Shown: positions 12,560-26,865 of the stretch, piece after piece | Numbering within the stretch: position 1 is the stretch's first letter | Layout: each line of letters starts with the position of its first letter | From: Escherichia coli | Lineage (GTDB): Bacteria; Pseudomonadota; Gammaproteobacteria; Enterobacterales; Enterobacteriaceae | Assembly (NCBI RefSeq): GCF_003334335.1 | Contig: NZ_QOWQ01000003.1 | Strand: one strand, 5' to 3' | Length of the DNA: 64,000 nt | Notes under the pieces: generated by a model | Told to the model about the DNA's origin: nothing | What the model saw: only the letters and a program-made list of their open reading frames with translations | Databases searched by the model: none | Program-made: the position numbers and the translations under genes

Positions 12560-12666
12560 ACGGTTATAAATCAACATATTGATTTATAAGCATGGAAATC
12601 CCCTGAGTGAAACAACGAATTGCTGTGTGTAGTCTTTGCCCATCTCCCACGATGGGCTTTTTTTTA
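12560..12666 (+). ncRNA. rprA: RprA small regulatory RNA (activator of rpoS translation)
   Basis: Sequence ACGGTTATAAATCAACATATTGATTTATAAGCATGGAAATCCCCTGAGTGAAACAACGAATTGCTGTGTGTAGTCTTTGCCCATCTCCCACGATGGGCTTTTTTT matches RprA as I recall it, ending in a hairpin plus T-run terminator; sits between ydiK and ydiL as in K-12. Confidence 0.85.
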
Positions 12667-12802
12667 ACATTTTTCCGCTTCGCTACCTCGCCCCTCACTC
12701 TTTCCAATAATGTTGCACAAGATACTGTGACTCTCTTCAAGCCGTCAGCAGGCTGATAATGTTATTTATATTTTATTGTTTATTTCATGCAGCCATTACA
12801 CG

Positions 12803-13159
12803 ATGAACGCTTATGAACTCCAGGCACTCCGCCATATTTTTGCCATGACTATTGATGAATGCGCGACCTGGATTGCCCAGACCGGTGACAGTGAAAGCTG
12901 GCGTCAGTGGGAAAATGGCAAGTGTGCCATTCCTGATCGTGTAGTCGAGCAACTGTTGGCTATGCGTCAGCAAAGAAAAAAACATCTTCATGCCATCATA
13001 GAGAAAATAAATAACCGCATCGGCAACAACACCATGCGTTTTTTCCCCGACTTAACCGCATTTCAACGAGTCTACCCTGATGGCAATTTTATTGACTGGA
13101 AGATCTATCAATCGGTAGCTGCTGAATTATATGCACACGATCTGGAGCGGCTTTGTTAA
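12803..13159 (+). CDS. ydiL: Small protein YdiL (DUF1870-like, unknown function)
   Basis: ORF track gives 127 aa; start set at internal MNAYELQALRH to give 118 aa. Confidence 0.8.
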   Translation: MNAYELQALRHIFAMTIDECATWIAQTGDSESWRQWENGKCAIPDRVVEQLLAMRQQRKKHLHAIIEKINNRIGNNTMRFFPDLTAFQRVYPDGNFIDWKIYQSVAAELYAHDLERLC

Positions 13160-13258: not shown

Positions 13259-14473
13259 ATGAAAAATCCCTATTTCCCTACCGCACTTGGGTTGTATTTT
13301 AATTACCTGGTGCATGGTATGGGCGTCCTTTTGATGAGCCTGAATATGGCCTCGCTGGAGACACTTTGGCAGACTAATGCCGCGGGTGTCTCGATAGTTA
13401 TCTCATCGCTGGGCATTGGTCGATTAAGTGTCTTGCTTTTTGCAGGATTATTATCCGATCGCTTTGGTCGCCGCCCTTTTATCATGCTCGGGATGTGCTG
13501 CTATATGGCCTTCTTTTTTGGCATCCTGCAGACCAATAACATCATTATCGCTTATGTTTTTGGCTTTCTGGCGGGAATGGCAAACAGTTTTCTCGATGCA
13601 GGCACTTATCCCAGTTTGATGGAAGCTTTTCCACGCTCACCTGGGACAGCCAATATTTTAATTAAAGCATTTGTTTCCAGCGGACAATTTTTATTACCGC
13701 TAATCATTAGCCTGTTAGTGTGGGCTGAACTGTGGTTCGGTTGGTCCTTTATGATTGCTGCAGGCATTATGTTTATTAACGCTCTGTTTTTATACCGTTG
13801 TACGTTCCCACCCCATCCGGGTCGTCGCTTACCTGTCATAAAGAAAACCACCAGCTCTACGGAACATCGCTGTTCAATTATCGATTTAGCCAGTTATACC
13901 TTATATGGCTATATCTCAATGGCAACGTTTTATCTGGTTAGCCAGTGGCTGGCACAGTACGGACAATTTGTTGCAGGCATGTCATACACTATGTCGATCA
14001 AACTACTCAGTATCTACACCGTGGGTTCGCTGCTTTGTGTATTTATTACCGCTCCACTCATTCGTAATACCGTTCGCCCAACAACATTACTGATGCTGTA
14101 CACCTTTATCTCATTTATTGCTCTGTTTACCGTCTGCCTGCATCCCACATTTTATGTGGTGATAATATTTGCTTTTGTCATTGGTTTTACCTCTGCTGGA
14201 GGTGTTGTGCAAATTGGCCTGACGTTAATGGCTGAACGTTTCCCTTACGCTAAAGGTAAAGCTACAGGGATCTATTACAGTGCGGGCAGTATTGCGACCT
14301 TTACTATTCCGTTGATTACGGCTCATCTGTCCCAAAGAAGTATTGCCGATATTATGTGGTTCGATACCGCCATCGCTGCCATCGGTTTTTTACTGGCACT
14401 GTTTATCGGCTTACGCAGCCGCAAAAAAACGCGGCATCACTCGCTAAAGGAAAATGTCGCTCCGGGTGGGTAA
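13259..14473 (+). CDS. ydiM: MFS transporter YdiM
   Basis: 404-aa polytopic membrane ORF with MFS signature (SDRFGRR); paralogous to the adjacent ydiN. Confidence 0.9.
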   Translation: MKNPYFPTALGLYFNYLVHGMGVLLMSLNMASLETLWQTNAAGVSIVISSLGIGRLSVLLFAGLLSDRFGRRPFIMLGMCCYMAFFFGILQTNNIIIAYVFGFLAGMANSFLDAGTYPSLMEAFPRSPGTANILIKAFVSSGQFLLPLIISLLVWAELWFGWSFMIAAGIMFINALFLYRCTFPPHPGRRLPVIKKTTSSTEHRCSIIDLASYTLYGYISMATFYLVSQWLAQYGQFVAGMSYTMSIKLLSIYTVGSLLCVFITAPLIRNTVRPTTLLMLYTFISFIALFTVCLHPTFYVVIIFAFVIGFTSAGGVVQIGLTLMAERFPYAKGKATGIYYSAGSIATFTIPLITAHLSQRSIADIMWFDTAIAAIGFLLALFIGLRSRKKTRHHSLKENVAPGG

Positions 14474-14699
14474 TGCAATATTCTTTTCAGGTCATGCAAG
14501 ATCTTACGGATAAATAACTCTTTCTGCGCTAACTAAGGAAAATCGCGATCAAAAACAAACTATGACATGCAATATTCCTGGAAACATAAACTTTATGCCA
14601 TGTACCCAGGGAAAATCATCTTCAGTATAGTAATTATGTAAACCGTCGGAGAACAATACGTACGGTAACGAAATTATCTTTCAGCAAGGAGCTGTGAAA

Positions 14700-15965
14700 A
14701 TGTCTCAAAATAAGGCTTTCAGCACGCCATTTATCCTGGCTGTTCTTTGTATTTACTTCAGCTACTTCCTGCACGGCATTAGTGTTATTACGCTTGCCCA
14801 AAATATGTCATCTCTGGCGGAAAAGTTTTCCACTGACAACGCGGGCATTGCCTACTTAATTTCCGGTATCGGTTTGGGGCGATTGATCAGTATTTTATTC
14901 TTCGGTGTGATCTCCGATAAGTTTGGTCGTCGGGCGGTGATATTAATGGCAGTAATAATGTATCTGCTATTCTTCTTTGGTATTCCCGCTTGCCCGAATT
15001 TAACTCTCGCCTACGGTCTGGCAGTGTGCGTAGGTATCGCTAACTCAGCGCTGGATACGGGTGGCTACCCCGCGCTCATGGAATGCTTTCCGAAAGCCTC
15101 TGGTTCGGCGGTCATACTGGTTAAAGCGATGGTGTCATTTGGGCAAATGTTCTACCCAATGCTGGTGAGCTATATGTTGCTCAATAATATCTGGTACGGC
15201 TATGGGCTGATTATTCCGGGTATTCTATTTGTACTGATCACGCTGATGCTGTTGAAAAGCAAATTCCCCAGCCAGTTGGTGGACGCCAGCGTAACTAATG
15301 AATTACCGCAAATGAACAGCAAACCGTTAGTCTGGCTGGAAGGTGTTTCATCGGTACTGTTCGGTGTAGCCGCATTCTCGACCTTTTATGTGATTGTGGT
15401 GTGGATGCCCAAATATGCGATGGCTTTTGCTGGTATGTCAGAAGCTGAGGCATTAAAAACCATCTCTTATTACAGTATGGGCTCGTTGGTCTGTGTCTTT
15501 ATTTTTGCCGCACTACTGAAAAAAATGGTCCGGCCCATCTGGGCTAATGTATTTAACTCTGCACTGGCAACAATAACAGCAGCCATTATCTACCTGTACC
15601 CTTCTCCACTGGTGTGCAATGCCGGAGCCTTTGTTATCGGTTTCTCAGCAGCTGGCGGCATTTTACAGCTCGGCGTTTCGGTCATGTCAGAGTTTTTTCC
15701 CAAAAGCAAAGCCAAAGTCACCAGTATTTATATGATGATGGGTGGACTGGCTAACTTTGTTATTCCACTGATTACCGGTTATCTGTCGAACATCGGCCTG
15801 CAATATATCATTGTTCTCGATTTTACTTTCGCGCTGCTGGCCCTGATTACCGCAATTATTGTTTTTATCCGCTATTACCGCGTTTTCATTATTCCTGAAA
15901 ATGATGTGCGGTTTGGCGAGCGTAAATTTTGCACCCGGTTAAACACAATTAAGCATAGAGGTTAA
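14700..15965 (+). CDS. ydiN: MFS transporter YdiN
   Basis: ORF track starts at GTG 14694; the ATG at 14700 (MSQNKAF) with AAGGA ribosome-binding site gives 421 aa; SDKFGRR MFS motif. Confidence 0.9.
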
Positions 15966-15976
15966 AGGAGTTAATT

Positions 15977-16843
15977 ATGGATGTTACCGCAAAATACGAA
16001 TTGATTGGGTTGATGGCCTATCCTATCCGCCACAGTTTATCGCCCGAAATGCAGAATAAAGCCTTAGAAAAAGCGGGATTGCCATTTACCTATATGGCCT
16101 TCGAAGTGGATAACGATAGCTTTCCTGGAGCAATTGAAGGATTAAAAGCCCTCAAAATGCGCGGAACTGGTGTATCGATGCCGAACAAACAACTGGCGTG
16201 TGAATATGTTGATGAATTAACACCAGCTGCCAAACTGGTGGGGGCCATCAACACCATCGTTAATGATGATGGCTATCTGCGTGGCTATAACACCGACGGC
16301 ACGGGCCATATTCGCGCCATTAAAGAGAGCGGTTTTGATATCAAAGGCAAAACGATGGTGCTGTTAGGGGCCGGTGGTGCCTCAACGGCAATTGGCGCGC
16401 AGGGGGCAATTGAAGGTTTAAAAGAAATTAAACTCTTTAACCGTCGGGATGAGTTCTTCGATAAAGCCCTCGCCTTCGCGCAGCGGGTTAATGAAAACAC
16501 CGATTGTGTCGTCACGGTCACCGATCTCGCCGATCAGCAAGCCTTTGCTGAAGCCCTGGCTTCCGCCGACATTTTAACCAATGGCACAAAAGTGGGTATG
16601 AAACCCCTTGAGAATGAATCATTGGTTAATGATATCAGTCTGTTACATCCGGGACTTCTGGTCACTGAATGCGTGTATAACCCGCATATGACGAAGTTAT
16701 TGCAGCAGGCGCAACAAGCTGGTTGCAAAACGATTGATGGATACGGCATGTTGTTGTGGCAAGGGGCTGAACAGTTCACATTATGGACTGGCAAAGATTT
16801 CCCTCTGGAATATGTTAAACAGGTCATGGGGTTCGGTGCCTGA
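15977..16843 (+). CDS. ydiB: Quinate/shikimate 5-dehydrogenase (NAD(P)-dependent)
   Basis: 288-aa ORF with Rossmann GAGGA motif; shikimate dehydrogenase family; immediately upstream of aroD. Confidence 0.93.
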
Positions 16844-16873: not shown

Positions 16874-17632
16874 ATGAAAACCGTAACTGTAAAAGATCTC
16901 GTCATTGGTACGGGCGCACCTAAAATCATCGTCTCGCTGATGGCGAAAGATATCGCCAGCGTGAAATCCGAAGCTCTCGCCTATCGTGAAGCGGACTTTG
17001 ATATTCTGGAATGGCGTGTGGACCACTATGCCGACCTCTCCAATGTGGAGTCTGTCATGGCGGCAGCAAAAATTCTCCGTGAGACCATGCCAGAAAAACC
17101 GCTGCTGTTTACCTTCCGCAGTGCCAAAGAAGGCGGCGAGCAGGCGATTTCCACCGAGGCTTATATTGCACTCAATCGTGCAGCCATCGACAGCGGCCTG
17201 GTTGATATGATCGATCTGGAGTTATTTACCGGTGATGATCAGGTTAAAGAAACCGTCGCCTACGCCCACGCGCATGATGTGAAAGTAGTCATGTCCAACC
17301 ATGACTTCCATAAAACGCCGGAAGCCGAAGAAATCATTGCCCGTCTGCGCAAAATGCAATCCTTCGACGCCGATATTCCTAAGATTGCGCTGATGCCGCA
17401 AAGTACCAGCGATGTGCTGACGTTGCTTGCCGCGACCCTGGAGATGCAGGAGCAGTATGCCGATCGTCCAATTATCACGATGTCGATGGCAAAAACTGGC
17501 GTAATTTCTCGTCTGGCTGGTGAAGTATTTGGCTCGGCGGCAACTTTTGGTGCGGTAAAAAAAGCGTCTGCGCCAGGGCAAATCTCGGTAAATGATTTGC
17601 GCACGGTATTAACTATTTTACACCAGGCATAA
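16874..17632 (+). CDS. aroD: 3-dehydroquinate dehydratase, type I
   Basis: 252-aa ORF matching type I DHQase. Confidence 0.95.
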
Positions 17633-17774
17633 GCAATAATATTTCGGCGGGAACACCCTCCCCGCCGAACTAAAAAATATATTCAATCGTATTTAATAAA
17701 AATATTTCGTGAGTCTCTGTGCGCTAATTCTCCATTTGGCGTAGGGAAAATCACATCTGAATCAGGAATTAACA

Positions 17775-19370
17775 ATGAAACCTGTAAAACCACCTCGTAT
17801 TAATGGACGAGTGCCGGTCCTGTCGGCACAGGAAGCGGTGAATTATATTCCCGACGAAGCAACACTTTGTGTGTTAGGCGCTGGCGGCGGTATTCTGGAA
17901 GCCACCACGTTAATTACTGCTCTTGCTGATAAATATAAACAGACTCAAACACCACGTAATTTATCGATTATTAGTCCAACAGGGCTTGGCGATCGCGCCG
18001 ACCGTGGTATTAGTCCTCTGGCGCAAGAAGGTCTGGTGAAATGGGCATTATGTGGTCACTGGGGACAATCGCCGCGTATTTCTGAACTCGCAGAACAAAA
18101 TAAAATTATTGCTTATAACTACCCACAAGGTGTACTTACACAAACCTTACGCGCCGCCGCAGCCCACCAGCCTGGTATTATTAGTGATATTGGCATCGGG
18201 ACATTTGTCGATCCACGCCAGCAAGGCGGCAAACTGAATGAAGTCACTAAAGAAGACCTGATTAAACTGGTCGAGTTTGATAACAAAGAATATCTCTATT
18301 ACAAAGCGATTGCGCCAGATATTGCCTTCATTCGCGCTACCACCTGCGACAGTGAAGGCTACGCCACTTTTGAAGATGAGGTGATGTATCTCGACGCATT
18401 GGTTATTGCCCAGGCGGTGCACAATAACGGCGGTATTGTGATGATGCAGGTGCAGAAAATGGTTAAGAAAGCCACGCTGCATCCTAAATCTGTCCGTATT
18501 CCGGGTTATCTGGTGGATATTGTGGTGGTCGATCCGGATCAAACCCAACTGTATGGCGGTGCACCGGTTAACCGCTTTATTTCTGGTGACTTCACCCTTG
18601 ATGACAGTACCAAACTTAGCCTGCCCCTAAACCAACGTAAATTAGTTGCGCGGCGCGCATTATTCGAAATGCGTAAAGGCGCGGTGGGGAATGTCGGCGT
18701 CGGTATTGCTGACGGCATTGGCCTGGTCGCCCGAGAAGAAGGTTGTGCTGATGACTTTATTCTGACGGTAGAAACAGGTCCGATTGGCGGAATTACTTCA
18801 CAGGGGATCGCCTTTGGCGCGAACGTGAATACCCGTGCCATTCTGGATATGACGTCCCAGTTTGATTTTTATCACGGTGGCGGTCTGGATGTTTGTTATT
18901 TGAGTTTTGCTGAAGTCGACCAGCACGGTAACGTCGGCGTGCATAAATTCAATGGTAAAATCATGGGCACCGGTGGATTTATTGATATCAGTGCCACTTC
19001 GAAGAAAATCATTTTCTGCGGCACATTAACTGCGGGCAGTTTAAAAACAGAAATTACCGACGGCAAATTAAATATCGTCCAGGAAGGACGGGTGAAGAAA
19101 TTTATTCGGGAACTACCGGAAATTACTTTCAGCGGAAAAATCGCTCTCGAGCGAGGGCTGGATGTTCGTTATATCACTGAGCGCGCAGTATTCACGCTGA
19201 AAGAAGACGGCCTGCATTTAATCGAAATCGCCCCTGGCGTCGATTTACAAAAAGATATTCTCGACAAAATGGATTTCACCCCAGTGATTTCGCCAGAACT
19301 CAAACTGATGGACGAAAGATTATTTATCGATGCGGCGATGGGTTTTGTCCTGCCTGAAGCGGCTCATTAA
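17775..19370 (+). CDS. ydiF: Acyl-CoA:acetate CoA-transferase (fused alpha/beta)
   Basis: 531-aa ORF; family I CoA-transferase fusion. Confidence 0.9.
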   Translation: MKPVKPPRINGRVPVLSAQEAVNYIPDEATLCVLGAGGGILEATTLITALADKYKQTQTPRNLSIISPTGLGDRADRGISPLAQEGLVKWALCGHWGQSPRISELAEQNKIIAYNYPQGVLTQTLRAAAAHQPGIISDIGIGTFVDPRQQGGKLNEVTKEDLIKLVEFDNKEYLYYKAIAPDIAFIRATTCDSEGYATFEDEVMYLDALVIAQAVHNNGGIVMMQVQKMVKKATLHPKSVRIPGYLVDIVVVDPDQTQLYGGAPVNRFISGDFTLDDSTKLSLPLNQRKLVARRALFEMRKGAVGNVGVGIADGIGLVAREEGCADDFILTVETGPIGGITSQGIAFGANVNTRAILDMTSQFDFYHGGGLDVCYLSFAEVDQHGNVGVHKFNGKIMGTGGFIDISATSKKIIFCGTLTAGSLKTEITDGKLNIVQEGRVKKFIRELPEITFSGKIALERGLDVRYITERAVFTLKEDGLHLIEIAPGVDLQKDILDKMDFTPVISPELKLMDERLFIDAAMGFVLPEAAH

Positions 19371-19383
19371 CAGGAGTATAATG

Positions 19384-20535
19384 ATGGATTTTTCTTTAAA
19401 TGAAGAACAAGAACTGCTGCTGGCCAGTATTCGCGAACTGATTACGACTAACTTTCCGGAAGAGTATTTCCGCACCTGCGATCAAAACGGGACATATCCG
19501 CGTGAGTTTATGCGGGCGCTGGCGGATAACGGTATTTCCATGCTTGGCGTGCCGGAAGAATTTGGTGGTATCCCTGCGGATTACGTCACCCAAATGCTGG
19601 CGCTGATGGAAGTGTCAAAATGCGGTGCTCCGGCATTTTTAATTACCAACGGTCAATGTATTCACAGTATGCGCCGTTTCGGTTCTGCAGAGCAGCTACG
19701 TAAAACGGCAGAGAGCACCCTGGAAACGGGTGATCCCGCCTATGCCCTGGCGTTGACGGAACCAGGTGCTGGCTCAGATAACAACAGTGCCACTACCACT
19801 TACACGCGTAAAAACGGCAAGGTCTACATCAACGGACAAAAAACCTTTATTACCGGTGCGAAAGAGTACCCGTATATGCTGGTGCTGGCGCGCGATCCGC
19901 AACCGAAAGATCCCAAAAAAGCCTTCACCCTGTGGTGGGTCGACTCCAGTAAGCCCGGCATTAAGATTAACCCGCTGCATAAAATCGGCTGGCATATGCT
20001 CAGCACCTGCGAAGTCTATCTCGACAACGTGGAGGTTGAAGAGAGCGACATGGTGGGCGAAGAAGGAATGGGTTTCCTCAATGTGATGTACAACTTTGAG
20101 ATGGAGCGCCTGATCAACGCCGCGCGCAGCACCGGCTTTGCCGAATGCGCCTTTGAAGATGCCGCCCGCTATGCCAACCAACGTATCGCTTTTGGTAAGC
20201 CCATTGGTCATAACCAGATGATCCAGGAAAAACTGGCGCTGATGGCGATTAAGATCGACAACATGCGCAACATGGTGCTGAAAGTGGCATGGCAAGCCGA
20301 TCAGCATCAGTCACTGCGCACCAGCGCGGCGCTGGCAAAACTGTACTGTGCACGTACCGCAATGGAAGTCATTGATGATGCGATTCAAATCGTGGGCGGT
20401 CTGGGCTATACCGATGAGGCGCGCGTCTCCCGCTTCTGGCGTGATGTCCGTTGTGAACGTATCGGCGGCGGTACAGACGAAATTATGATTTACGTAGCAG
20501 GTCGGCAGATCCTGAAAGACTATCAGAACAAATAA
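19384..20535 (+). CDS. ydiO: Acyl-CoA dehydrogenase family protein (CaiA-like)
   Basis: ORF track opens at 19330; AGGAG ribosome-binding site precedes the ATG pair at 19381/19384 (MDFSLNEEQ), giving 383 aa; acyl-CoA dehydrogenase fold. Confidence 0.9.
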   Translation: MDFSLNEEQELLLASIRELITTNFPEEYFRTCDQNGTYPREFMRALADNGISMLGVPEEFGGIPADYVTQMLALMEVSKCGAPAFLITNGQCIHSMRRFGSAEQLRKTAESTLETGDPAYALALTEPGAGSDNNSATTTYTRKNGKVYINGQKTFITGAKEYPYMLVLARDPQPKDPKKAFTLWWVDSSKPGIKINPLHKIGWHMLSTCEVYLDNVEVEESDMVGEEGMGFLNVMYNFEMERLINAARSTGFAECAFEDAARYANQRIAFGKPIGHNQMIQEKLALMAIKIDNMRNMVLKVAWQADQHQSLRTSAALAKLYCARTAMEVIDDAIQIVGGLGYTDEARVSRFWRDVRCERIGGGTDEIMIYVAGRQILKDYQNK

Positions 20536-20577
20536 TCTGCAGGCGGCGCAGCTTCTTAACAAACTGCGCCGCCAGAT

Positions 20578-21489
20578 TTATCCAACAAGACTTACCGGTT
20601 GAGGAAATTCAGATAGGATTTCTTGTTCCGCAAAACAGTTTTTAAATTGTCTACGGTAATCGCTGGGCGAACAACCGACATGGCGCAAAAACAGTTTGGC
20701 AAAGTGATCGACATTTTCATAACCCACACGCCAGGAGATCTCTGCCTGTGATAATTCAGTATTAGTGAGTGACCATTTTGCTTCCGTCATACGCCGTTGA
20801 ATAACATAGTTAATAGGGGAAATACGATACTCTTTGGTAAATTCATGGCAAATATAACTGACGCTGGCACGAAATTTTTTCGATAACTGTTCTAAAGTGA
20901 TTTTTTCGCGATAATTATTATTCAGATAGAAAAGAATATCTTTTATCAGAACATCTTTTTTAATATACCCCTGCTCCGAACGATAAGCATTTTTAAAATT
21001 TTCGTAGTAAAGAATGGCTAACGTATAGGCAAATGCATCCCATAACGAAGATGTTTGGCTATTTTTACTTTGCGGCAAAATCACACTTAGCTCATTAAAT
21101 AAGGTTTTTATGACTTCTTTTCCCTGCCCCGCGGCAATTACCGGACAAGAATGCGGTTGCAGTAGCTGATTTTCCTCAGCCCCCTGAAACTGAAAGCCGT
21201 ACAGCGCACAGGTACACGTCGTTGCCGGATCGTTAACGTCAGAGGCCACCGCATGCAGCCTGCCGCGTTCTATCACCACAATGTCATCCGCATGTGCGAC
21301 ATATAACGAAGAATCGATGGTAAACCTTGCAACCCCTTTCTTGACGTAAATCAACTCGGTTTCATTGTCATGAACGTGATGTCCGGACTCCCATTTTGGA
21401 TCATCGCTAAATGCAAAACGTGAAAGCCGTGGCGTTTTACCGGCGACAAACAGCGTTTCACTGGCGTTATCAAAACAGCGTTGATACAT
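20578..21489 (-). CDS. ydiP: AraC/XylS-family transcriptional regulator YdiP
   Basis: 303-aa ORF with cupin-like N-terminus and C-terminal AraC helix-turn-helix; divergent from ydiQ. Confidence 0.85.
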   Translation of the reverse strand: MYQRCFDNASETLFVAGKTPRLSRFAFSDDPKWESGHHVHDNETELIYVKKGVARFTIDSSLYVAHADDIVVIERGRLHAVASDVNDPATTCTCALYGFQFQGAEENQLLQPHSCPVIAAGQGKEVIKTLFNELSVILPQSKNSQTSSLWDAFAYTLAILYYENFKNAYRSEQGYIKKDVLIKDILFYLNNNYREKITLEQLSKKFRASVSYICHEFTKEYRISPINYVIQRRMTEAKWSLTNTELSQAEISWRVGYENVDHFAKLFLRHVGCSPSDYRRQFKNCFAEQEILSEFPQPVSLVG

Positions 21490-21804
21490 GACAACCTCCC
21501 TATTCCATGAGCAAGCAAAAACAATATATGCCGGATAAAATACGGCGTGTATTGCGGTTATACAACCGCGTTTAGCGAGAGCTAAACAAGATTATTTACA
21601 CTGAATGCAAGATTGTACGGTCATGGAATAACTATATTGCCGCAAATTGCACTTTTGTTTTAGCGATCGCATTTTTTTTGCAAGATTGTTGGCAAGGAAA
21701 ACAGCTTGCTCCGTCGAAAACCCCGCACCGCTATCGCACACTATTTTCAGGCCATTTTTACCTTCCATCGGAGATGGTTCCGTATGCGACTCACAGGAGA
21801 AATC

Positions 21805-22569
21805 ATGAAAATAATAACCTGCTTTAAGCTGGTGCCTGAAGAACAGGACATTGTTGTCACTCCAGAATACACCCTGAATTTCGACAATGCCGACGCCAAA
21901 ATCAGCCAGTTCGATCTCAATGCCATTGAAGCTGCAAGCCAGCTCGCAACAGATGACGATGAGATAGCCGCGCTGACCGTTGGCGGCTCATTGTTGCAGA
22001 ACTCGAAAGTGCGCAAAGACGTGCTATCCCGCGGGCCGCACAGCCTGTATTTGGTGCAGGATGCGCAACTTGAACATGCACTGCCTCTCGATACCGCAAA
22101 AGCGCTGGCGGCAGCAATTGAAAAGATCGGCTTCGATTTACTGATCTTTGGTGAAGGTTCCGGCGACCTTTATGCCCAGCAGGTTGGCTTGCTGGTCGGA
22201 GAAATTCTGCAACTTCCGGTGATTAATGCAGTGAGTGCTATTCAGCGTCAGGGCAATACACTGGTGATTGAACGCACGCTTGAAGATGATGTTGAAGTTA
22301 TTGAACTCTCTGTTCCAGCCGTGCTCTGCGTCACCTCCGATATTAACGTGCCACGCATTCCTTCGATGAAAGCCATTCTCGGCGCGGGTAAAAAACCGGT
22401 AAATCAGTGGCAGGCAAGTGATATTGACTGGAGCCAGAGCGCGCCACTTGCTGAACTGGTCGGCATTCGCGTACCGCCGCAAACAGAACGTAAGCACATC
22501 ATTATCGATAACGATTCGCCGGAGGCCATTGCCGAGCTGGCGGAACATCTGAAGAAAGCCCTGAACTGA
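21805..22569 (+). CDS. ydiQ: Electron transfer flavoprotein beta subunit (FixA-like)
   Basis: ORF track opens at 21706; true start at MKIITCFKLVPEEQD after an AGGAG ribosome-binding site (254 aa). Confidence 0.9.
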   Translation: MKIITCFKLVPEEQDIVVTPEYTLNFDNADAKISQFDLNAIEAASQLATDDDEIAALTVGGSLLQNSKVRKDVLSRGPHSLYLVQDAQLEHALPLDTAKALAAAIEKIGFDLLIFGEGSGDLYAQQVGLLVGEILQLPVINAVSAIQRQGNTLVIERTLEDDVEVIELSVPAVLCVTSDINVPRIPSMKAILGAGKKPVNQWQASDIDWSQSAPLAELVGIRVPPQTERKHIIIDNDSPEAIAELAEHLKKALN

Positions 22570-22588
22570 AGCCTACGGAGAAGAAACG

Positions 22589-23527
22589 ATGAGTCAATTA
22601 AACAGCGTCTGGGTCTTTAGCGATAATCCTGAACGTTATGCTGAACTGTTTGGCGGCGCTCAGCAATGGGGCCAACAGGTGTATGCCATTGTACAAAATA
22701 CCGACCAGGCGCAGGCAGTTATGCCTTATGGTCCAAAATGTCTTTATGTTCTTGCGCAAAACGACGCGCTGCAACGCACTGAAAATTACGCCGAAAGCAT
22801 TGCTGCCCTGCTGAAAGATAAACACCCCGCTATGTTGCTGTTGGCCGCGACGAAACGTGGTAAAGCGCTGGCAGCACGGTTAAGTGTGCAACTGAATGCG
22901 GCGCTGGTGAACGATGCCACGGCGGTGGATATTGTCGATGGTCACATTTGCGCCGAACACCGGATGTATGGCGGGTTAGCGTTCGCTCAGGAAAAGATCA
23001 ACAGCCCGCTGGCGATCATTACCCTTGCACCCGGTGTTCAGGAACCGTGCACCAGTGATACCTCTCATCAGTGCCCGACAGAAACGGTACCTTATGTTGC
23101 TCCGCGTCATGAAATTCTCTGTCGCGAACGCCGTGCGAAAGCCGCAAGCAGCGTGGACCTGAGCAAAGCAAAACGTGTGGTTGGCGTCGGTCGTGGACTG
23201 GCGGCGCAGGATGACCTAAAAATGGTCCACGAACTGGCGGCGGTGCTGAATGCTGAAGTCGGCTGTTCACGTCCAATTGCCGAAGGCGAGAACTGGATGG
23301 AGCGTGAACGTTATATCGGTGTCTCCGGCGTGTTGCTGAAATCCGATCTCTACCTGACGCTGGGGATCTCCGGGCAGATCCAGCATATGGTTGGCGGCAA
23401 CGGCGCAAAAGTGATTGTCGCCATCAATAAAGATAAAAATGCGCCAATCTTCAACTATGCCGACTACGGTCTGGTGGGCGATATCTACAAAGTCGTCCCT
23501 GCCCTGATTAGCCAGTTGAGCCGCTAA
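22589..23527 (+). CDS. ydiR: Electron transfer flavoprotein alpha subunit (FixB-like)
   Basis: 312-aa ORF; ETF alpha FAD-binding C-terminal domain. Confidence 0.9.
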   Translation: MSQLNSVWVFSDNPERYAELFGGAQQWGQQVYAIVQNTDQAQAVMPYGPKCLYVLAQNDALQRTENYAESIAALLKDKHPAMLLLAATKRGKALAARLSVQLNAALVNDATAVDIVDGHICAEHRMYGGLAFAQEKINSPLAIITLAPGVQEPCTSDTSHQCPTETVPYVAPRHEILCRERRAKAASSVDLSKAKRVVGVGRGLAAQDDLKMVHELAAVLNAEVGCSRPIAEGENWMERERYIGVSGVLLKSDLYLTLGISGQIQHMVGGNGAKVIVAINKDKNAPIFNYADYGLVGDIYKVVPALISQLSR

Positions 23528-23582
23528 TTCCCCTTTCAACCACATCTCCCGCTGTAAACGCAGCGGGAAGGGAGCATAACGC

Positions 23583-24872
23583 ATGTCGGATGACAAATTT
23601 GATGCCATTGTGGTCGGTGCGGGCGTTGCTGGTAGCGTTGCCGCACTGGTCATGGCACGAGCCGGGCTGGATGTCCTGGTGATAGAACGCGGCGACAGTG
23701 CCGGATGTAAAAACATGACCGGCGGGCGTCTTTATGCCCACACACTTGAAGCAATCATTCCAGGCTTTGCAGTATCAGCGCCGGTAGAACGCAAGGTCAC
23801 ACGCGAGAAAATCTCCTTCTTAACCGAAGAAAGCGCCGTTACCCTCGATTTTCACCGCGAGCAGCCAGATGTTCCGCAACACGCATCTTATACCGTATTG
23901 CGTAATCGTCTGGACCCGTGGTTGATGGAACAAGCCGAGCAGGCGGGCGCGCAGTTTATCCCAGGCGTTCGCGTCGACGCGCTGGTTCGTGAAGGAAACA
24001 AGGTCACTGGCGTGCAGGCTGGGGATGATATTCTCGAAGCGAATGTGGTGATTCTGGCTGATGGCGTTAACTCGATGCTTGGCCGCTCGCTGGGAATGGT
24101 TCCCGCTTCCGATCCGCATCATTACGCTGTTGGTGTTAAAGAGGTTATTGGCCTCACACCAGAACAGATCAACGATCGCTTTAATATTACGGGCGAGGAA
24201 GGTGCCGCCTGGCTGTTTGCCGGTTCCCCTTCTGACGGCCTGATGGGCGGGGGATTTCTCTATACCAACAAGGATTCCATATCCTTGGGGCTGGTTTGTG
24301 GATTGGGTGATATCGCCCATGCGCAAAAAAGCGTGCCGCAAATGCTGGAAGATTTTAAACAACACCCCGCCATTCGCCCGCTGATTAGCGGCGGCAAACT
24401 GCTTGAATATTCCGCGCATATGGTGCCGGAAGGCGGTCTGGCAATGGTGCCGCAACTGGTTAACGAGGGCGTGATGATCGTTGGTGACGCCGCAGGCTTC
24501 TGCCTGAATTTGGGTTTTACGGTCCGCGGCATGGATTTAGCCATTGCATCGGCTCAGGCTGCCGCCACAACGGTGATCGCCGCCAAAGAACGCGCGGATT
24601 TCTCCGCCAGCAGTCTGGCGCAATACAAACGTGAGCTGGAACAAAGCTGCGTCATGCGTGATATGCAGCATTTTCGCAAGATCCCGGCGCTGATGGAAAA
24701 CCCGCGCCTGTTTAGCCAATACCCACGAATGGTAGCCGACATCATGAACGAGATGTTCACCATCGACGGCAAACCAAACCAGCCGGTACGAAAAATGATC
24801 ATGGGACATGCGAAGAAAATTGGGCTGATCAACTTGCTGAAAGATGGCATTAAGGGAGCAACCGCGCTATGA
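23583..24872 (+). CDS. ydiS: FAD-dependent oxidoreductase (ETF-quinone oxidoreductase / FixC-like)
   Basis: 429-aa ORF with N-terminal FAD dinucleotide-binding motif VVGAGVAGS. Confidence 0.9.
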   Translation: MSDDKFDAIVVGAGVAGSVAALVMARAGLDVLVIERGDSAGCKNMTGGRLYAHTLEAIIPGFAVSAPVERKVTREKISFLTEESAVTLDFHREQPDVPQHASYTVLRNRLDPWLMEQAEQAGAQFIPGVRVDALVREGNKVTGVQAGDDILEANVVILADGVNSMLGRSLGMVPASDPHHYAVGVKEVIGLTPEQINDRFNITGEEGAAWLFAGSPSDGLMGGGFLYTNKDSISLGLVCGLGDIAHAQKSVPQMLEDFKQHPAIRPLISGGKLLEYSAHMVPEGGLAMVPQLVNEGVMIVGDAAGFCLNLGFTVRGMDLAIASAQAAATTVIAAKERADFSASSLAQYKRELEQSCVMRDMQHFRKIPALMENPRLFSQYPRMVADIMNEMFTIDGKPNQPVRKMIMGHAKKIGLINLLKDGIKGATAL

Positions 24873-25162
24873 GCCAGAACGCTACGGTTAACGTCGACAT
24901 CAAATTAGGCGTCAATAAATTCCATGTTGATGAGGGCCACCCGCATATCATTCTGGCGGAAAATCCCGATATCAATGAATTCCATAAATTAATGAAAGCC
25001 TGCCCTGCCGGACTTTATAAGCAGGATGACGCAGGAAACATTCATTTTGATTCCGCCGGTTGTCTGGAGTGCGGCACCTGTCGGGTGCTGTGCGGTAACA
25101 CTATTCTCGAACAGTGGCAATATCCCGCAGGCACCTTCGGTATTGATTTTCGCTACGGCTAA
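24869..25162 (+). CDS. ydiT: Ferredoxin-like protein (FixX-like)
   Basis: 97-aa ORF with Cys motif CLECGTCRVLC; start overlaps the ydiS stop (ATGA). Confidence 0.88.
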   Translation: MSQNATVNVDIKLGVNKFHVDEGHPHIILAENPDINEFHKLMKACPAGLYKQDDAGNIHFDSAGCLECGTCRVLCGNTILEQWQYPAGTFGIDFRYG

Positions 25163-25218
25163 TCATGCATCCCACAGGCCCGCATCTCGGGCCTGATGTT
25201 CTGTTTCGAGAGTCCAAC

Positions 25219-26865
25219 ATGAAAGTGACATTAACGTTTAACGAACAACGTCGTGCGGCGTATCGTCAGCAAGGGTTATGGGGCGATGCTTCGCTGGCCG
25301 ATTACTGGCAGCAGACCGCTCGTGCGATGCCAGACAAAATTGCCGTGGTCGATAATCATGGTGCATCGTACACCTATAGCGCGCTCGATCACGCCGCGAG
25401 CTGTCTGGCAAACTGGATGTTAGCGAAGGGTATTGAATCAGGCGATCGCATCGCATTTCAACTGCCTGGCTGGTGTGAATTTACCGTTATCTATCTTGCC
25501 TGCCTGAAAATCGGTGCAGTTTCCGTGCCGCTGTTGCCTTCCTGGCGGGAAGCAGAACTGGTGTGGGTGCTCAATAAGTGTCAGGCAAAAATGTTCTTTG
25601 CACCGACGTTGTTTAAACAAACGCGTCCGGTAGATTTAATCCTGCCGCTGCAAAATCAGCTTCCACAACTACAACAAATTGTCGGCGTGGACAAACTGGC
25701 TCCCGCCACCTCTTCCCTCTCATTAAGTCAGATTATCGCCGACAATACCTCACTGACCACGGCGATAACGACCCACGGCGATGAATTAGCTGCGGTGCTG
25801 TTTACCTCCGGAACCGAGGGTCTGCCAAAGGGCGTGATGCTAACGCATAACAATATTCTCGCCAGTGAGCGGGCTTATTGCGCGCGACTGAATCTGACCT
25901 GGCAGGATGTCTTTATGATGCCTGCGCCACTTGGTCACGCAACGGGCTTTCTGCATGGCGTAACGGCACCATTCTTAATTGGCGCTCGCAGCGTGTTGTT
26001 AGATATTTTCACTCCTGATGCGTGTCTCGCGCTGCTTGAGCAGCAGCGTTGCACCTGTATGCTCGGCGCAACGCCGTTTGTCTATGATCTTTTGAATGTA
26101 CTAGAGAAACAACCCGCGGACCTTTCAGCGCTGCGTTTCTTTCTTTGCGGCGGAACCACAATCCCCAAAAAAGTGGCGCGTGAATGCCAGCAGCGCGGCA
26201 TTAAATTATTAAGTGTTTATGGTTCCACAGAAAGTTCGCCGCATGCGGTGGTGAATCTCGATGATCCTTTGTCGCGCTTTATGCACACCGATGGTTACGC
26301 TGCCGCAGGTGTAGAGATTAAAGTGGTCGATGACGCACGCAAGACCTTACCGCCAGGTTGCGAAGGTGAAGAAGCCTCGCGTGGCCCCAATGTGTTTATG
26401 GGGTATTTTGATGAACCTGAATTAACCGCCCGTGCCCTGGATGAAGAAGGCTGGTATTACAGCGGCGATCTCTGCCGTATGGATGAGGCTGGCTATATAA
26501 AAATTACCGGACGCAAAAAAGATATTATTGTCCGCGGCGGCGAAAATATTAGCAGCCGTGAAGTGGAAGATATTTTATTGCAGCATCCTAAAATTCACGA
26601 TGCCTGTGTGGTTGCAATGTCCGATGAACGTTTAGGTGAACGATCATGCGCTTATGTCGTGCTGAAAGCGCCGCATCATTCATTATCGCTGGAAGAGGTA
26701 GTGGCTTTTTTTAGCCGTAAACGGGTCGCAAAATATAAATATCCTGAACATATCGTGGTAATCGAAAAACTACCGCGAACTACCTCAGGTAAAATACAAA
26801 AGTTTTTGTTAAGAAAAGATATTATGCGGCGTTTAACGCAGGATGTCTGTGAAGAGATTGAATAA
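25219..26865 (+). CDS. fadK: Short-chain acyl-CoA synthetase (AMP-forming)
   Basis: Adenylate-forming enzyme motifs (TSGTEGLPKGV). ORF track opens at ATG 25165 (566 aa), 2 nt after the ydiT stop; I chose the internal MKVTLTFNEQ start (548 aa) but cannot exclude 25165. Confidence 0.9.
   Translation: MKVTLTFNEQRRAAYRQQGLWGDASLADYWQQTARAMPDKIAVVDNHGASYTYSALDHAASCLANWMLAKGIESGDRIAFQLPGWCEFTVIYLACLKIGAVSVPLLPSWREAELVWVLNKCQAKMFFAPTLFKQTRPVDLILPLQNQLPQLQQIVGVDKLAPATSSLSLSQIIADNTSLTTAITTHGDELAAVLFTSGTEGLPKGVMLTHNNILASERAYCARLNLTWQDVFMMPAPLGHATGFLHGVTAPFLIGARSVLLDIFTPDACLALLEQQRCTCMLGATPFVYDLLNVLEKQPADLSALRFFLCGGTTIPKKVARECQQRGIKLLSVYGSTESSPHAVVNLDDPLSRFMHTDGYAAAGVEIKVVDDARKTLPPGCEGEEASRGPNVFMGYFDEPELTARALDEEGWYYSGDLCRMDEAGYIKITGRKKDIIVRGGENISSREVEDILLQHPKIHDACVVAMSDERLGERSCAYVVLKAPHHSLSLEEVVAFFSRKRVAKYKYPEHIVVIEKLPRTTSGKIQKFLLRKDIMRRLTQDVCEEIE

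Follow-up and report, generated by a model that had tools for sequence, protein, structure and literature searches.

The ydiF-fadK locus of Escherichia coli was analysed in a 64,000-nucleotide stretch of contig NZ_QOWQ01000003.1 (assembly GCF_003334335.1), and this whole stretch is called the window below. The locus combines coenzyme A (CoA) enzymes with an electron-transfer flavoprotein (ETF) and FixC- and FixX-like proteins. An initial annotation made from the letters alone had placed eight genes here, with an ATGA overlap between ydiS and ydiT, and the RefSeq annotation and the list of open reading frames (ORFs), which were concordant and on which gene placement rests, put them at the same coordinates. 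Curated family models and Pfam confirmed the family assignments of all eight; for YdiT, which had been called a ferredoxin, an iron-sulfur protein gene is indeed present, but its product is a FixX-type subunit instead of a free ferredoxin. The genes, with the adjoining ppsA, are as follows:

17775-19370, + strand: ydiF, a fused alpha/beta family-I CoA-transferase
19384-20535, + strand: ydiO, a CaiA-like acyl-CoA dehydrogenase/enoyl-CoA reductase flavoenzyme
20578-21489, - strand: ydiP, an AraC-family regulator with an N-terminal cupin/AraC ligand-binding domain (Pfam HTH_18, Cupin_2, AraC_binding)
21805-22569, + strand: ydiQ, ETF beta, FixA-like (NF008998, 500 bits)
22589-23527, + strand: ydiR, ETF alpha, FixB-like, carrier of the electron-transfer flavin adenine dinucleotide (FAD) (NF008884, 689 bits)
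23583-24872, + strand: ydiS, a FixC/ETF-quinone-oxidoreductase-like flavoprotein (NF007450, 977 bits)
24869-25162, + strand: ydiT, a FixX-like subunit
25219-26865, + strand: fadK (ydiD), an AMP-forming acyl-CoA ligase (NF004758, 1087 bits)
from 26922, - strand: ppsA, convergent with fadK

The regulator gene ydiP is convergent with ydiO and divergent from ydiQ. Intergenic gaps are short (ydiF-ydiO, 13 nt; ydiQ-ydiR, 19; ydiR-ydiS, 55; ydiT-fadK, 56), and the 4-nt overlap at 24869-24872 has an identical counterpart in E. coli fixC/fixX and in the Desulfovibrio and Pectobacteriaceae homologues. All ORFs of the locus are intact. The longest ORFs of ydiO, ydiQ, and fadK begin 5' of the annotated starts, that of ydiO by 54 nt (19330-19383), so as to overlap the 3' end of ydiF; for ydiO the annotated start is to be preferred, since AGGAG lies upstream of it and the N-terminal MDF does not vary among 12 homologues. 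The 11-kb stretch around the locus is 100% identical to that of E. coli K-12 MG1655, and its G+C content gives no sign of recent foreign origin. Being already known and named, the locus has low novelty as a feature; what the present analysis adds is an ETF signature analysis, the breadth of the module family, a larger conserved block, a three-box operator, and a QuiR-like regulator in related genera. Among the orphan gene products of E. coli, YdiO and YdiQRST are comparatively well known: metabolic models include them, as does the engineering of reverse beta-oxidation, with no defined substrate, direction, or partner chemistry, and ydiO has served to illustrate genes with "limited functional information" (PMC6412132). 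The initial annotation had called the electron path and substrate range unsettled, in agreement with a 2022 review that gives the function of YdiQR as unknown and experimental evidence as lacking (PMC9329746).

The FixABCX/CaiA-type architecture recognised in the initial annotation is borne out by comparison with the carnitine system of E. coli (caiTABCDE/fixABCX), to which YdiO and YdiQRST show 45-62% identity (YdiO/CaiA, 48%; YdiQ/FixA, 56%; YdiR/FixB, 45%; YdiS/FixC, 61%; YdiT/FixX, 62%); FadK and CaiC are 29% identical. The two systems share the logic of a ligase, a CoA-transferase, a reductase, and an ETF with FixCX, as well as the C/X overlap. YdiF is identical to PDB entries 2AHU, 2AHV, and 2AHW, has NCBIfam matches to family-I subunits A and B and to FadX, and is conserved at 85-93% identity in other genera; reportedly, in work by Rangarajan from 2005, it acts on short acyl-CoAs with acetate. 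YdiO scored 782 bits against its own model (NF008997) and 451 bits against the crotonobetainyl-CoA dehydrogenase model, and no solved structure is closer to it than ~30% identity. Its Glu241 (NFEMERL) is invariant, aligns with the Glu of CaiA FDHERF, and occupies the helix-G catalytic-base position of the isovaleryl-CoA dehydrogenase (IVD) type, while the position of the catalytic Glu of medium-chain acyl-CoA dehydrogenase is Gly in both YdiO (IGGGTDE) and CaiA. The Glu241-type position holds the catalytic Glu of isovaleryl-CoA and long-chain acyl-CoA dehydrogenases (the IVD/LCAD arrangement), and by analogy Glu241 is the probable catalytic base of YdiO. With Glu241 and a CaiA-like arrangement, YdiO looks catalytically competent.

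On the quinone side, the best solved relatives of YdiS are 7KOE_C (E 6e-70) and the pig ETF-quinone oxidoreductase (ETF-QO) 2GMH, and the protein carries the ETF-QO ubiquinone-binding domain (Pfam ETFQO_UQ-bd, E 6.5e-9). YdiT has five Cys residues (Cys45, Cys65, Cys68, Cys71, Cys75) versus nine in its sole PDB relative, 7KOE_D, the EtfX of T. maritima with two clusters, whose N-terminal Cys group YdiT lacks; two [4Fe-4S] clusters would take eight or more Cys, and this difference points to one cluster, not two. E. coli FixX has four Cys, and FixX-like proteins of related loci mostly have four to six. For FadK, the second-best family model was cyclohexanecarboxylate-CoA ligase (417 bits, far under that model's cut-off), and the enzyme is most active in vitro on C6-C8 acids (reviewed in PMC9329746).

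The initial annotation had also proposed that the ETF might be bifurcating, and we checked YdiQ and YdiR for the relevant signatures, using statistics and residues from PMC8958531 and reading columns from HMMER alignments to solved structures. The EtfB "zipper" is DGDTAQ in 216 bifurcating ETFs (100% D, 95% G, 85% D, 100% T, 86% A, 93% Q) and DDDxNQ in 449 canonical ETFs (PMC8958531). Residues 121-126 of YdiQ are DLYAQQ, column-matched to GRQAIDGDTAQVG of CarD, C. difficile EtfB, and LctB (6FAH_B, 5OL2_B, and 7QH2_B), and the bifurcating zipper is thus absent. The same residues face DNDMNA of Paracoccus (1EFP) and DDDCNQ of the human protein (2A1T), so the canonical AMP-site zipper is absent from YdiQ as well; E. 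coli FixA has DLYAQQ, as does YdiQ. In the ETF of R. palustris, Thr94 and Thr97 hold the ribose of the bifurcating FAD, and a T94,97A variant binds AMP instead of FAD (PMC8958531). YdiR has N-A104-A-L-V107-N-D-A-T versus H/E/N-T-G-L-T-A-D-C-T in 5OL2_A, 7QH2_A, 6FAH_A, and 7KOE_B, both Thr residues being absent, if, as the spacing suggests, T-G-L-T is the register of Thr94/Thr97; FixB deviates in its own way (K-A-A-V-S-N-D-A-S). Arg165 of EtfA, at the nucleotide site, is near-universal in bifurcating and canonical ETFs (447/449 of the latter; PMC8958531). Its column holds His124 in YdiR, versus Arg in 5OL2_A, and His125-Met126 in FixB, with H, R, or K across the wider clade. The electron-transfer FAD site of YdiR is kept (Ser-Arg228 and GISGQIQH).

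Among 72 ETF beta proteins encoded beside YdiO/CaiA-like genes, ~65 share D-[LIVM]-Y-[AS]-Q-Q. The clear exceptions belong to an extra ETF pair in two Hungatella loci, with IDGDTGQTG and HTGLTADCT, and since this pair carries the bifurcating signature, the test does detect bifurcating ETFs when they are present. Each of these two loci, from metagenome-assembled genomes (MAGs; L058 and L059), has two ETF pairs by one YdiO-like gene, one YdiQ-type and one fully bifurcating, together with two FixC-like genes. Since DLYAQQ matches neither the bifurcating nor the canonical zipper, we place YdiQR, together with carnitine FixAB, in a third ETF clade; the third ETF set of E. coli is too distant to be informative (YgcR gave no BLAST match to YdiQ, and YgcQ is 30% identical to YdiR). 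The interface nucleotide site of YdiQR appears to be remodelled and is most likely without a bifurcating flavin. With both published signatures absent and one cluster only expected in YdiT, the proposal of a bifurcating ETF found no support, and a non-bifurcating ETF is, on these residues, a good deal more probable.

We then compared 80 loci from species-representative genomes, with ORFs labelled by BLASTP against reference proteins; counts for distant relatives refer to 26 loci of at least 18 kb, and those for loci of the ydi type (type I) to 29 long loci. A protein search found relatives of YdiO closer than CaiA (60-68% identity) in Desulfovibrio, Pectobacteriaceae, Moorella, and Peptococcaceae, with the same gene set on their contigs. 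Neighbours in the distant loci were ETF beta (25 of 26), CoA-transferase (24), ETF alpha, FixC-like, and FixX-like (23 each), AMP-forming ligase (21), and crotonase (10), and the hosts of the module belong to Pseudomonadota, Desulfobacterota, Bacillota, Actinomycetota, and Campylobacterota. This recurrence in five phyla is strong comparative evidence that the YdiO/CaiA-type flavoenzyme is functionally coupled with ETF, FixCX, and ligase/transferase; the coupling of YdiO to YdiQRST claimed by the initial annotation is supported to that extent, the evidence being comparative and not physical. Genes for hydratase, 3-hydroxyacyl-CoA dehydrogenase, and thiolase occurred in 0/29 type I loci, while ligase and CoA-transferase genes occurred in 29/29, a content that fits a single-step redox loop. 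The ydi block likewise contains none of the crotonase-family and thiolase genes of beta-oxidation (fad) loci. MFS (major facilitator superfamily) transporters of the related loci were considered as YdiN/YdiM orthologues and rejected, as they are not orthologous.

The same comparison separates the ydi locus from the carnitine system. YdiF is a family-I enzyme with zero similarity to the family-III CaiB and is therefore an analogue, not an orthologue; related loci use family-III CoA-transferases. Unlike cai/fix, the ydi locus lacks the CaiD hydratase, the CaiT antiporter, and CaiE, has an AraC-type regulator instead of CaiF, and has quinate/shikimate genes as neighbours. CaiD, the BCCT antiporter CaiT, and CaiF were found neither in the block in the window nor in the 29 type I loci, and since these carnitine-specific parts are absent, ydi is not a carnitine system.

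A different, "type II" module occurs in some enterobacteria. Its YdiO-like gene (62-70% identity) is accompanied by genes for a second acyl-CoA dehydrogenase, an ETF with FixCX, a ligase, a family-III CoA-transferase, an ACS-type MFS transporter, an AraC regulator, and a desulfoferrodoxin-like protein; the module was found at L007/L041 (E. albertii), L037, L038, L046, L048, L042, L043, L003, and L047. Citrobacter youngae, Citrobacter sp. NCU1, and Prodigiosinella have both types.

The order ydiM-ydiN-ydiB-aroD-ydiF-ydiO-(ydiP)-ydiQRST-fadK holds for every Enterobacterales genome that has a true ydiO orthologue (87-99% identity), and ydiP is present in 29/29 long type I loci. When all ORFs of the window were compared, the conserved block was found to begin at ydiL, so that the unit delimited in the initial annotation, while correct in the genes it named, was incomplete: it also includes ydiN-ydiB-aroD and starts at ~12776. 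The additional genes of the block are:

12776-13159, + strand: ydiL, a small helix-turn-helix protein, Aca2/YdiL-like (Pfam PF08965, E 4e-61)
13259-14473, + strand: ydiM, an MFS transporter by annotation, with zero NCBIfam matches and without a curated family
14700-15965, + strand: ydiN, an MFS transporter by annotation, with a weak TsgA-like match
15977-16843, + strand: ydiB, an NAD(P)-dependent quinate/shikimate dehydrogenase (NF009390, 670 bits versus a cut-off of 349)
16874-17632, + strand: aroD, a type I 3-dehydroquinate dehydratase (TIGR01093, 292 bits versus a cut-off of 139)

In Kosakonia, Yersinia, Dickeya, Brenneria, Serratia, and Prodigiosinella, ydiL adjoins ydiM, while the outer flanks (the ydiK/J side and ppsA) are not retained in these six genera; only Citrobacter and Intestinirhabdus have them. 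The unit that is conserved, and that seems to be co-regulated, is thus ydiL-ydiM-ydiN-ydiB-aroD-ydiF-ydiO-ydiP-ydiQRST-fadK. Conservation is uneven within it: between E. coli and Yersinia/Dickeya/Serratia, YdiO (91-93% identity) and YdiF (87-92%) are far above YdiR (67-71%), YdiP (62-69%), FadK (69-77%), and AroD (69-73%). YdiN is 72-95% identical across the type I loci of other species.

A phylogenetic footprint of the ydiP-ydiQ spacer revealed three direct boxes, and the same arrangement was found in the ydiM-ydiN spacer. These and the other candidate control elements are:

14474-14578, + strand: three direct boxes in the ydiM-ydiN spacer, TGCAATATTCT (14474), TGCAAGATCTT (14495), and TGCAATATTCC (14568)
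21585-21689, + strand: three direct boxes in the ydiP-ydiQ spacer, AACAAGATTAT (21585), TGCAAGATTGT (21606), and TGCAAGATTGT (21679)
17643-17669, no strand assigned: stem-loop after aroD, 11 pairs, 7 of them G-C, without a U-run on the + strand
21341-21354, no strand assigned: FNR-type site TTGACgtaaATCAA, inside the 5' part of ydiP, with one mismatch to TTGATN4ATCAA
25175-25195, + strand: stem-loop between ydiT and fadK, CAGGCCCGcatctCGGGCCTG, G+C-rich, 8 pairs, 7 of them G-C, followed by a T-rich tail

The boxes are spaced by 21 and 73 bp at both promoters, and box 3 lies 132 nt from the ATG of ydiN and 126 nt from that of ydiQ. The two promoters also have in common the contexts ATGCAAGATnnTACGG at box 2 and TGCAAnATTnnTGGnAAnnnAAAC at box 3. 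In an alignment of the ydiP-ydiQ spacer from 12 genomes, only the boxes and the stretch after box 3 were conserved from Escherichia to Yersinia, Dickeya, and Serratia, and the ydiN-promoter boxes are kept across the same range. The triplet [TA][GA]CAANAT at 21/73-bp spacing occurs twice in the window, at these two promoters, and in 0/300 first-order Markov simulations, where even 21-bp box pairs averaged 0.017 per sequence. Direct repeats with a 21-bp period are typical for dimers of AraC-family proteins. Since YdiP is the one regulator present in all blocks, we infer that it controls both ydiQRST-fadK and ydiN-ydiB-aroD, the three-box element being its putative operator. Upstream of ydiF, a YdiP-type box was found in 0/12 genomes; with the aroD-ydiF gap devoid of a box, direct operator control of ydiFO is not supported, and these genes may be read through from upstream or be under their own control.

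A stem-loop follows aroD at the same position in most genera (-9 to -23 kcal/mol), its sequence differing between them, and the rest of the aroD-ydiF gap is unconserved; the stem-loop between ydiT and fadK may act as an attenuator of read-through into fadK. Scans for sigma-70 promoters and terminators gave results at or under shuffle expectation, and only these two strong hairpins were kept. Likewise, scans of the window with CRP and FNR consensus sequences were not enriched over chance. The FNR-type site at 21341-21354 does coincide with an FNR ChIP-chip target listed as ydiP/ydiQ (PMC1802558), and ydiQ, ydiR, ydiS, and ydiT appear together among the strongly up-regulated genes in one transcriptome study (PMC4015609). 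In Dickeya, Brenneria, and Prodigiosinella (L025, L026, L036), an extra conserved stretch starting AACCGGAGAAAAnnATG..CAACAA lies between the ydiQ promoter boxes and ydiQ. It resembles a short ORF with its own ribosome-binding site and is absent in Escherichia, Citrobacter, Kosakonia, Intestinirhabdus, and Yersinia.

Taken as a whole, the locus is best explained as a Cai/Fix-type, quinone-linked, non-bifurcating redox module in a CoA loop, a reading to which we assign a probability of roughly 55%. The composition of the chain, from the quinone pool through YdiS/YdiT and YdiQR to YdiO and acyl-CoA/enoyl-CoA, is in itself highly probable. In such a chain YdiO would interconvert acyl-CoA and 2-enoyl-CoA and exchange single electrons with the FAD of YdiQR, which would in turn be linked, through membrane-associated YdiS (FAD, quinone site) and YdiT (one [4Fe-4S] cluster), to the (demethyl)menaquinone/quinone pool; YdiQR would be expected to have no second FAD, NADH site, or ferredoxin branch. 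FadK would prime the loop by making the first thioester at the cost of ATP, and YdiF would then shift CoA from product to fresh substrate, much as CaiC and CaiB do for carnitine. YdiP, through its ligand-binding cupin, would turn on ydiQRST-fadK and ydiN-ydiB-aroD, and perhaps ydiF-ydiO by read-through. In the reductive mode, quinol would reduce enoyl-CoA in an "enoyl-CoA respiration," with an unsaturated acid from the gut serving as electron sink.

Chemically, the chain could run either way, and we lean slightly toward reduction as the physiological one. It is favoured since the only characterised paralogue, CaiA/FixABCX, works reductively, the reduction of crotonobetainyl-CoA having been described as "a respiration process" that requires fixA and fixB. 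It is favoured also by the 29 type I loci, all without hydratase, dehydrogenase, and thiolase yet with ligase and transferase, and by the presence of a dedicated ligand-binding AraC-type regulator, not FadR. Considering that the midpoint potentials are ~ -10 mV for crotonyl-CoA/butyryl-CoA and ~ -74 mV for menaquinone, menaquinol can reduce enoyl-CoA, while the reverse reaction needs a quinone of higher potential. A mechanistic precedent exists in Syntrophus enoyl-CoA respiration: electron flow from quinol through an ETF:quinone oxidoreductase, an ETF of the non-bifurcating type, and then an acyl-CoA dehydrogenase to enoyl-CoA is documented (PMC8805022), and in Syntrophus aciditrophicus, whose products include cyclohexanecarboxylate and whose principle is the one proposed here for ydi, the oxidoreductase (EMO) is a membrane protein and the acyl-CoA dehydrogenase serves as terminal reductase (PMC8805022). 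The two systems differ in that EMO belongs to another family than FixCX and in organism and electron donors, and the mechanism given here for ydi is a proposal from genes.

The alternative that survives best is anaerobic beta-oxidation, in which YdiO would replace FadE on fatty acids with nitrate or another acceptor. Electrons would pass from acyl-CoA through YdiO, YdiQR, and YdiST to quinone, as in the mitochondrial ETF/ETF-QO system, with FadK activating medium-chain acids and YdiF activating short-chain acids from acetyl-CoA. The homology of YdiS to ETF-QO and its quinone-binding domain suit this scheme, and the non-bifurcating signatures fit an oxidative and a reductive reading equally. 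The group 1 ETFs of mitochondria and proteobacteria also resemble YdiQR in having one electron-transfer FAD in the alpha subunit (Ser-Arg228, GISGQIQH) and a quinone-linked flavoprotein partner (the 2GMH match); they differ in that YdiQ lacks DDDxNQ, that FixC and FixX are two proteins with a separate small iron-sulfur subunit, and that the direction in ydi is probably reversed. In vitro substrates are plain aliphatic, namely C6-C8 acids for FadK and, reportedly, short acyl-CoAs for YdiF. A fadD fadK double mutant cannot use fatty acids (PMC9329746).

The literature places ydiFO and ydiQRST in anaerobic beta-oxidation (PMC3967523; PMC3896788), as does, by its title, a genetics paper from 2016 (Gulevich et al., cited in PMC10318755). 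These sources, like the aliphatic substrates, weigh against the quinone-linked reductive module, and so do several other points. According to a summary in PMC13126070, ydiO deletion or overexpression barely altered reverse-beta-oxidation flux (Vick 2015); anaerobic induction of fadK is disputed; the putative operator is missing upstream of ydiF; and the FNR site is oddly placed, inside ydiP. In YdiR, Arg125 directly follows His124, next to the expected Arg position, and the signatures used derive from ETF groups 1 and 2, so that a third clade could bind a second flavin otherwise.

Beta-oxidation in turn is poorly matched by the gene content, since hydratase, dehydrogenase, and thiolase are in 0/29 type I loci, although fadIJ could supply them in trans, and the closest characterised paralogue is reductive. 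Oxidation of acyl-CoA (~ -10 mV) by menaquinone (-74 mV) would be uphill, so that demethylmenaquinone or ubiquinone would be needed. A dedicated AraC-type regulator and an operator common with ydiN-ydiB-aroD would be unexpected for general fatty-acid degradation. Transcriptome studies did not reproduce the anaerobic induction of fadK, for which control by FadR or CRP is not known, and the review that reports this states for YdiQR that "experimental evidence is lacking" (PMC9329746). Beta-oxidation, though a serious rival, is in our view rather unlikely to be the role of the locus.

Flavin-based electron bifurcation is known from Bcd-EtfAB, CarCDE, and FixABCX of nitrogen fixers. Applied to ydi, YdiQR would oxidise NADH with a second FAD, passing one electron to YdiO/enoyl-CoA, or to quinone via YdiST, and the other to ferredoxin or flavodoxin. 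The best solved-structure sequence matches of YdiQ and YdiR are indeed bifurcating ETFs (6FAH, 5OL2, 7QH2, 7KOE), the YdiQ N-terminus, MKIITCFKLVPEE, is like that of bifurcating EtfB proteins, and metabolic models have coupled YdiO-YdiQRST to YdbK. The bifurcating FixABCX/EtfABCX systems (nitrogen fixers; T. maritima 7KOE) also have the same four subunits in the same order (ETF beta, alpha, FixC, FixX), with 7KOE_C and 7KOE_D as solved relatives of YdiS and YdiT. However, canonical ETFs score nearly equally against YdiR (5OW0, E 3e-35; 1EFV, E 3e-30), every tested signature position deviates (DLYAQQ, Ala104/Val107, His124), and YdiT lacks the Cys residues for a second cluster, while the identical test picks out true bifurcating ETFs in the same data set. 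NADH/ferredoxin chemistry is accordingly not expected of ydi, and bifurcation here is very improbable.

A related contrast is offered by caffeate respiration (CarABCDE) of Acetobacterium woodii (6FAH), which has a CoA ligase and CoA-transferase loop, an acyl-CoA-dehydrogenase-type reductase acting on an imported unsaturated aromatic acid, and an ETF, with CarD the best solved match of YdiQ (E 1e-22). Unlike YdiQR, CarDE is bifurcating (DGDTAQ and TGLTADC) and has an extra ferredoxin domain; the system lacks FixCX and is coupled to ferredoxin/Rnf, not quinones (PMC8805022). The existence of a third, non-bifurcating-looking ETF clade common to YdiQR and carnitine FixAB takes ferredoxin/NADH bifurcation off the list of likely mechanisms and indicates the quinone pool.

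That the locus is a cryptic or decaying cai/fix duplicate without its own physiological role in E. coli K-12, as one might suspect from the lack of a phenotype firmly tied to ydiQRST in the literature, the small effects seen in engineering studies, and insertion sequence (IS) elements or fusions within the locus in some strains, is extremely unlikely, given that at least 80% of it was found in 5,350/5,426 complete E. coli genomes, that YdiO and YdiF are conserved across genera well above neighbouring genes, that the promoter boxes are likewise kept, and that the ORFs are intact.

As to what the quinone-linked module might act on, the leading candidate, put forward tentatively, is a cyclohexene carboxylate derived from shikimate or quinate. 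It is also possible, if somewhat doubtful, that the whole ydiL-fadK block is one regulon for anaerobic "hydroaromatic enoyl-CoA respiration." In this scheme, YdiN/YdiM would import quinate or shikimate; YdiB and AroD would interconvert quinate, dehydroquinate, dehydroshikimate, and shikimate; FadK and YdiF would form the CoA ester of shikimate or a related cyclohex-1-ene-1-carboxylate; YdiO would reduce C1=C2 with electrons from the quinol pool via YdiST and YdiQR; and the saturated acid (hydroshikimate) would be set free by CoA transfer. If true, the scheme would give the flavin-reductase shikimate respiration of Eggerthella and Sutterella a counterpart that is cytoplasmic and depends on CoA.

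Several findings suggest this scheme. YdiB, AroD, and YdiN/YdiM are present and syntenic in a block that is invariant across three enterobacterial families with differing flanks, and the same three-box operator stands at the promoters of ydiN and ydiQ. A regulator provides a further link: in Yersinia, Dickeya, Brenneria, Serratia, and Prodigiosinella, a LysR-type protein of 300 residues is encoded between ydiM and ydiN, divergent from ydiN (L024:3763-4665, - strand; same position in L025, L026, L031, and L036). Over 200 residues, its effector domain scored 220 bits (E 4e-64) against PDB 5TED, "Lmo0488 protein"; so close a match is unusual between proteins of Gram-negative and Gram-positive hosts. 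We take Lmo0488 to be QuiR, which binds shikimate and activates the quinate/shikimate genes of Listeria, and 5TED to be its complex with shikimate. Like the QuiR-controlled clusters of Listeria, the ydi block has a quinate/shikimate dehydrogenase, a dehydroquinate dehydratase, and MFS genes; unlike them, E. coli has no dehydroshikimate dehydratase, and the QuiR-like LysR gene was absent at the DNA level from all 5,426 E. coli genomes.

The homologous module of an uncultured Desulfovibrio points the same way, since inserted between its module genes are an AroE-family shikimate dehydrogenase (223 bits versus a cut-off of 200), an MFS transporter, and a TIM-barrel protein (QuiC-like) with weak similarity to dehydroshikimate dehydratase. 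An aromatic-acid/H+ symporter-like gene occurs in enterobacterial type II modules and in one type I locus, that of an Enterobacterales MAG (L033), where it lies at the ydiT-fadK junction inside the ydiQRST-fadK operon and supports the scheme; so does the cyclohexanecarboxylate-CoA ligase model that comes next for FadK. In addition, ydiQRST was strongly up-regulated in late cultures of a shikimate-accumulating strain (PMC4015609). In Eggerthella lenta and Sutterella wadsworthensis, shikimate's enoate bond has been proven to serve as a respiratory acceptor, by another enzyme class (bioRxiv 10.1101/2022.12.26.521950); these gut shikimate reductases are flavocytochrome-type and act on the free acid, not in a CoA-dependent manner. 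As a variant, a cinnamate-type acid could be the substrate, an E. coli isolate having been found to convert cinnamate to 3-phenylpropionate by an unidentified enzyme (bioRxiv 10.1101/2025.11.25.690607).

Other facts speak against a hydroaromatic substrate. AroD is a housekeeping biosynthetic dehydroquinase, and FadK and YdiF have been shown to act on aliphatic substrates only. Actinobacterial YdiF-YdiO-ETF-FixCX loci have housekeeping neighbours and zero shikimate genes, so that the hydroaromatic link is not general to the family. Moreover, we know of no report of shikimate reduction by E. coli. The operator and the quinate/shikimate link nevertheless narrow the substrate question to a short list of compounds that can be approached experimentally. 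Since many anaerobes of gut and sediment have the same module, Desulfovibrio, Eggerthella, Hungatella, and Campylobacter among them, it may represent a widespread class of CoA-dependent organic-acid electron sinks. Decay of ydiFO, ydiQRST, and ydiP in extraintestinal serovars of Salmonella (PMC3967523) suggests that these genes have a part in growth in the gut lumen.

An Rfam scan gave zero RNA elements inside the locus, its sole match being the rprA small RNA gene upstream (12560-12667, + strand; RF00034, 118.5 bits versus a gathering score of 70), which is located just 5' of ydiL, on the left border of the conserved block. By its title, one paper (PMC10588857) reportedly ties ydiM, together with yhjE and yfcJ, to the production of active bo3 quinol oxidase, which offers another functional lead for this gene. 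In some E. coli genomes the locus is rearranged, with IS1A or ISVsa5 inserted inside ydiQRS or nearby; one rearranged version encodes a 409-residue product in which an ETF domain is joined to YdiO's N-terminal and middle domains. In a Logan-assembly product (P0006), a CoA-transferase domain is fused to YdiO.

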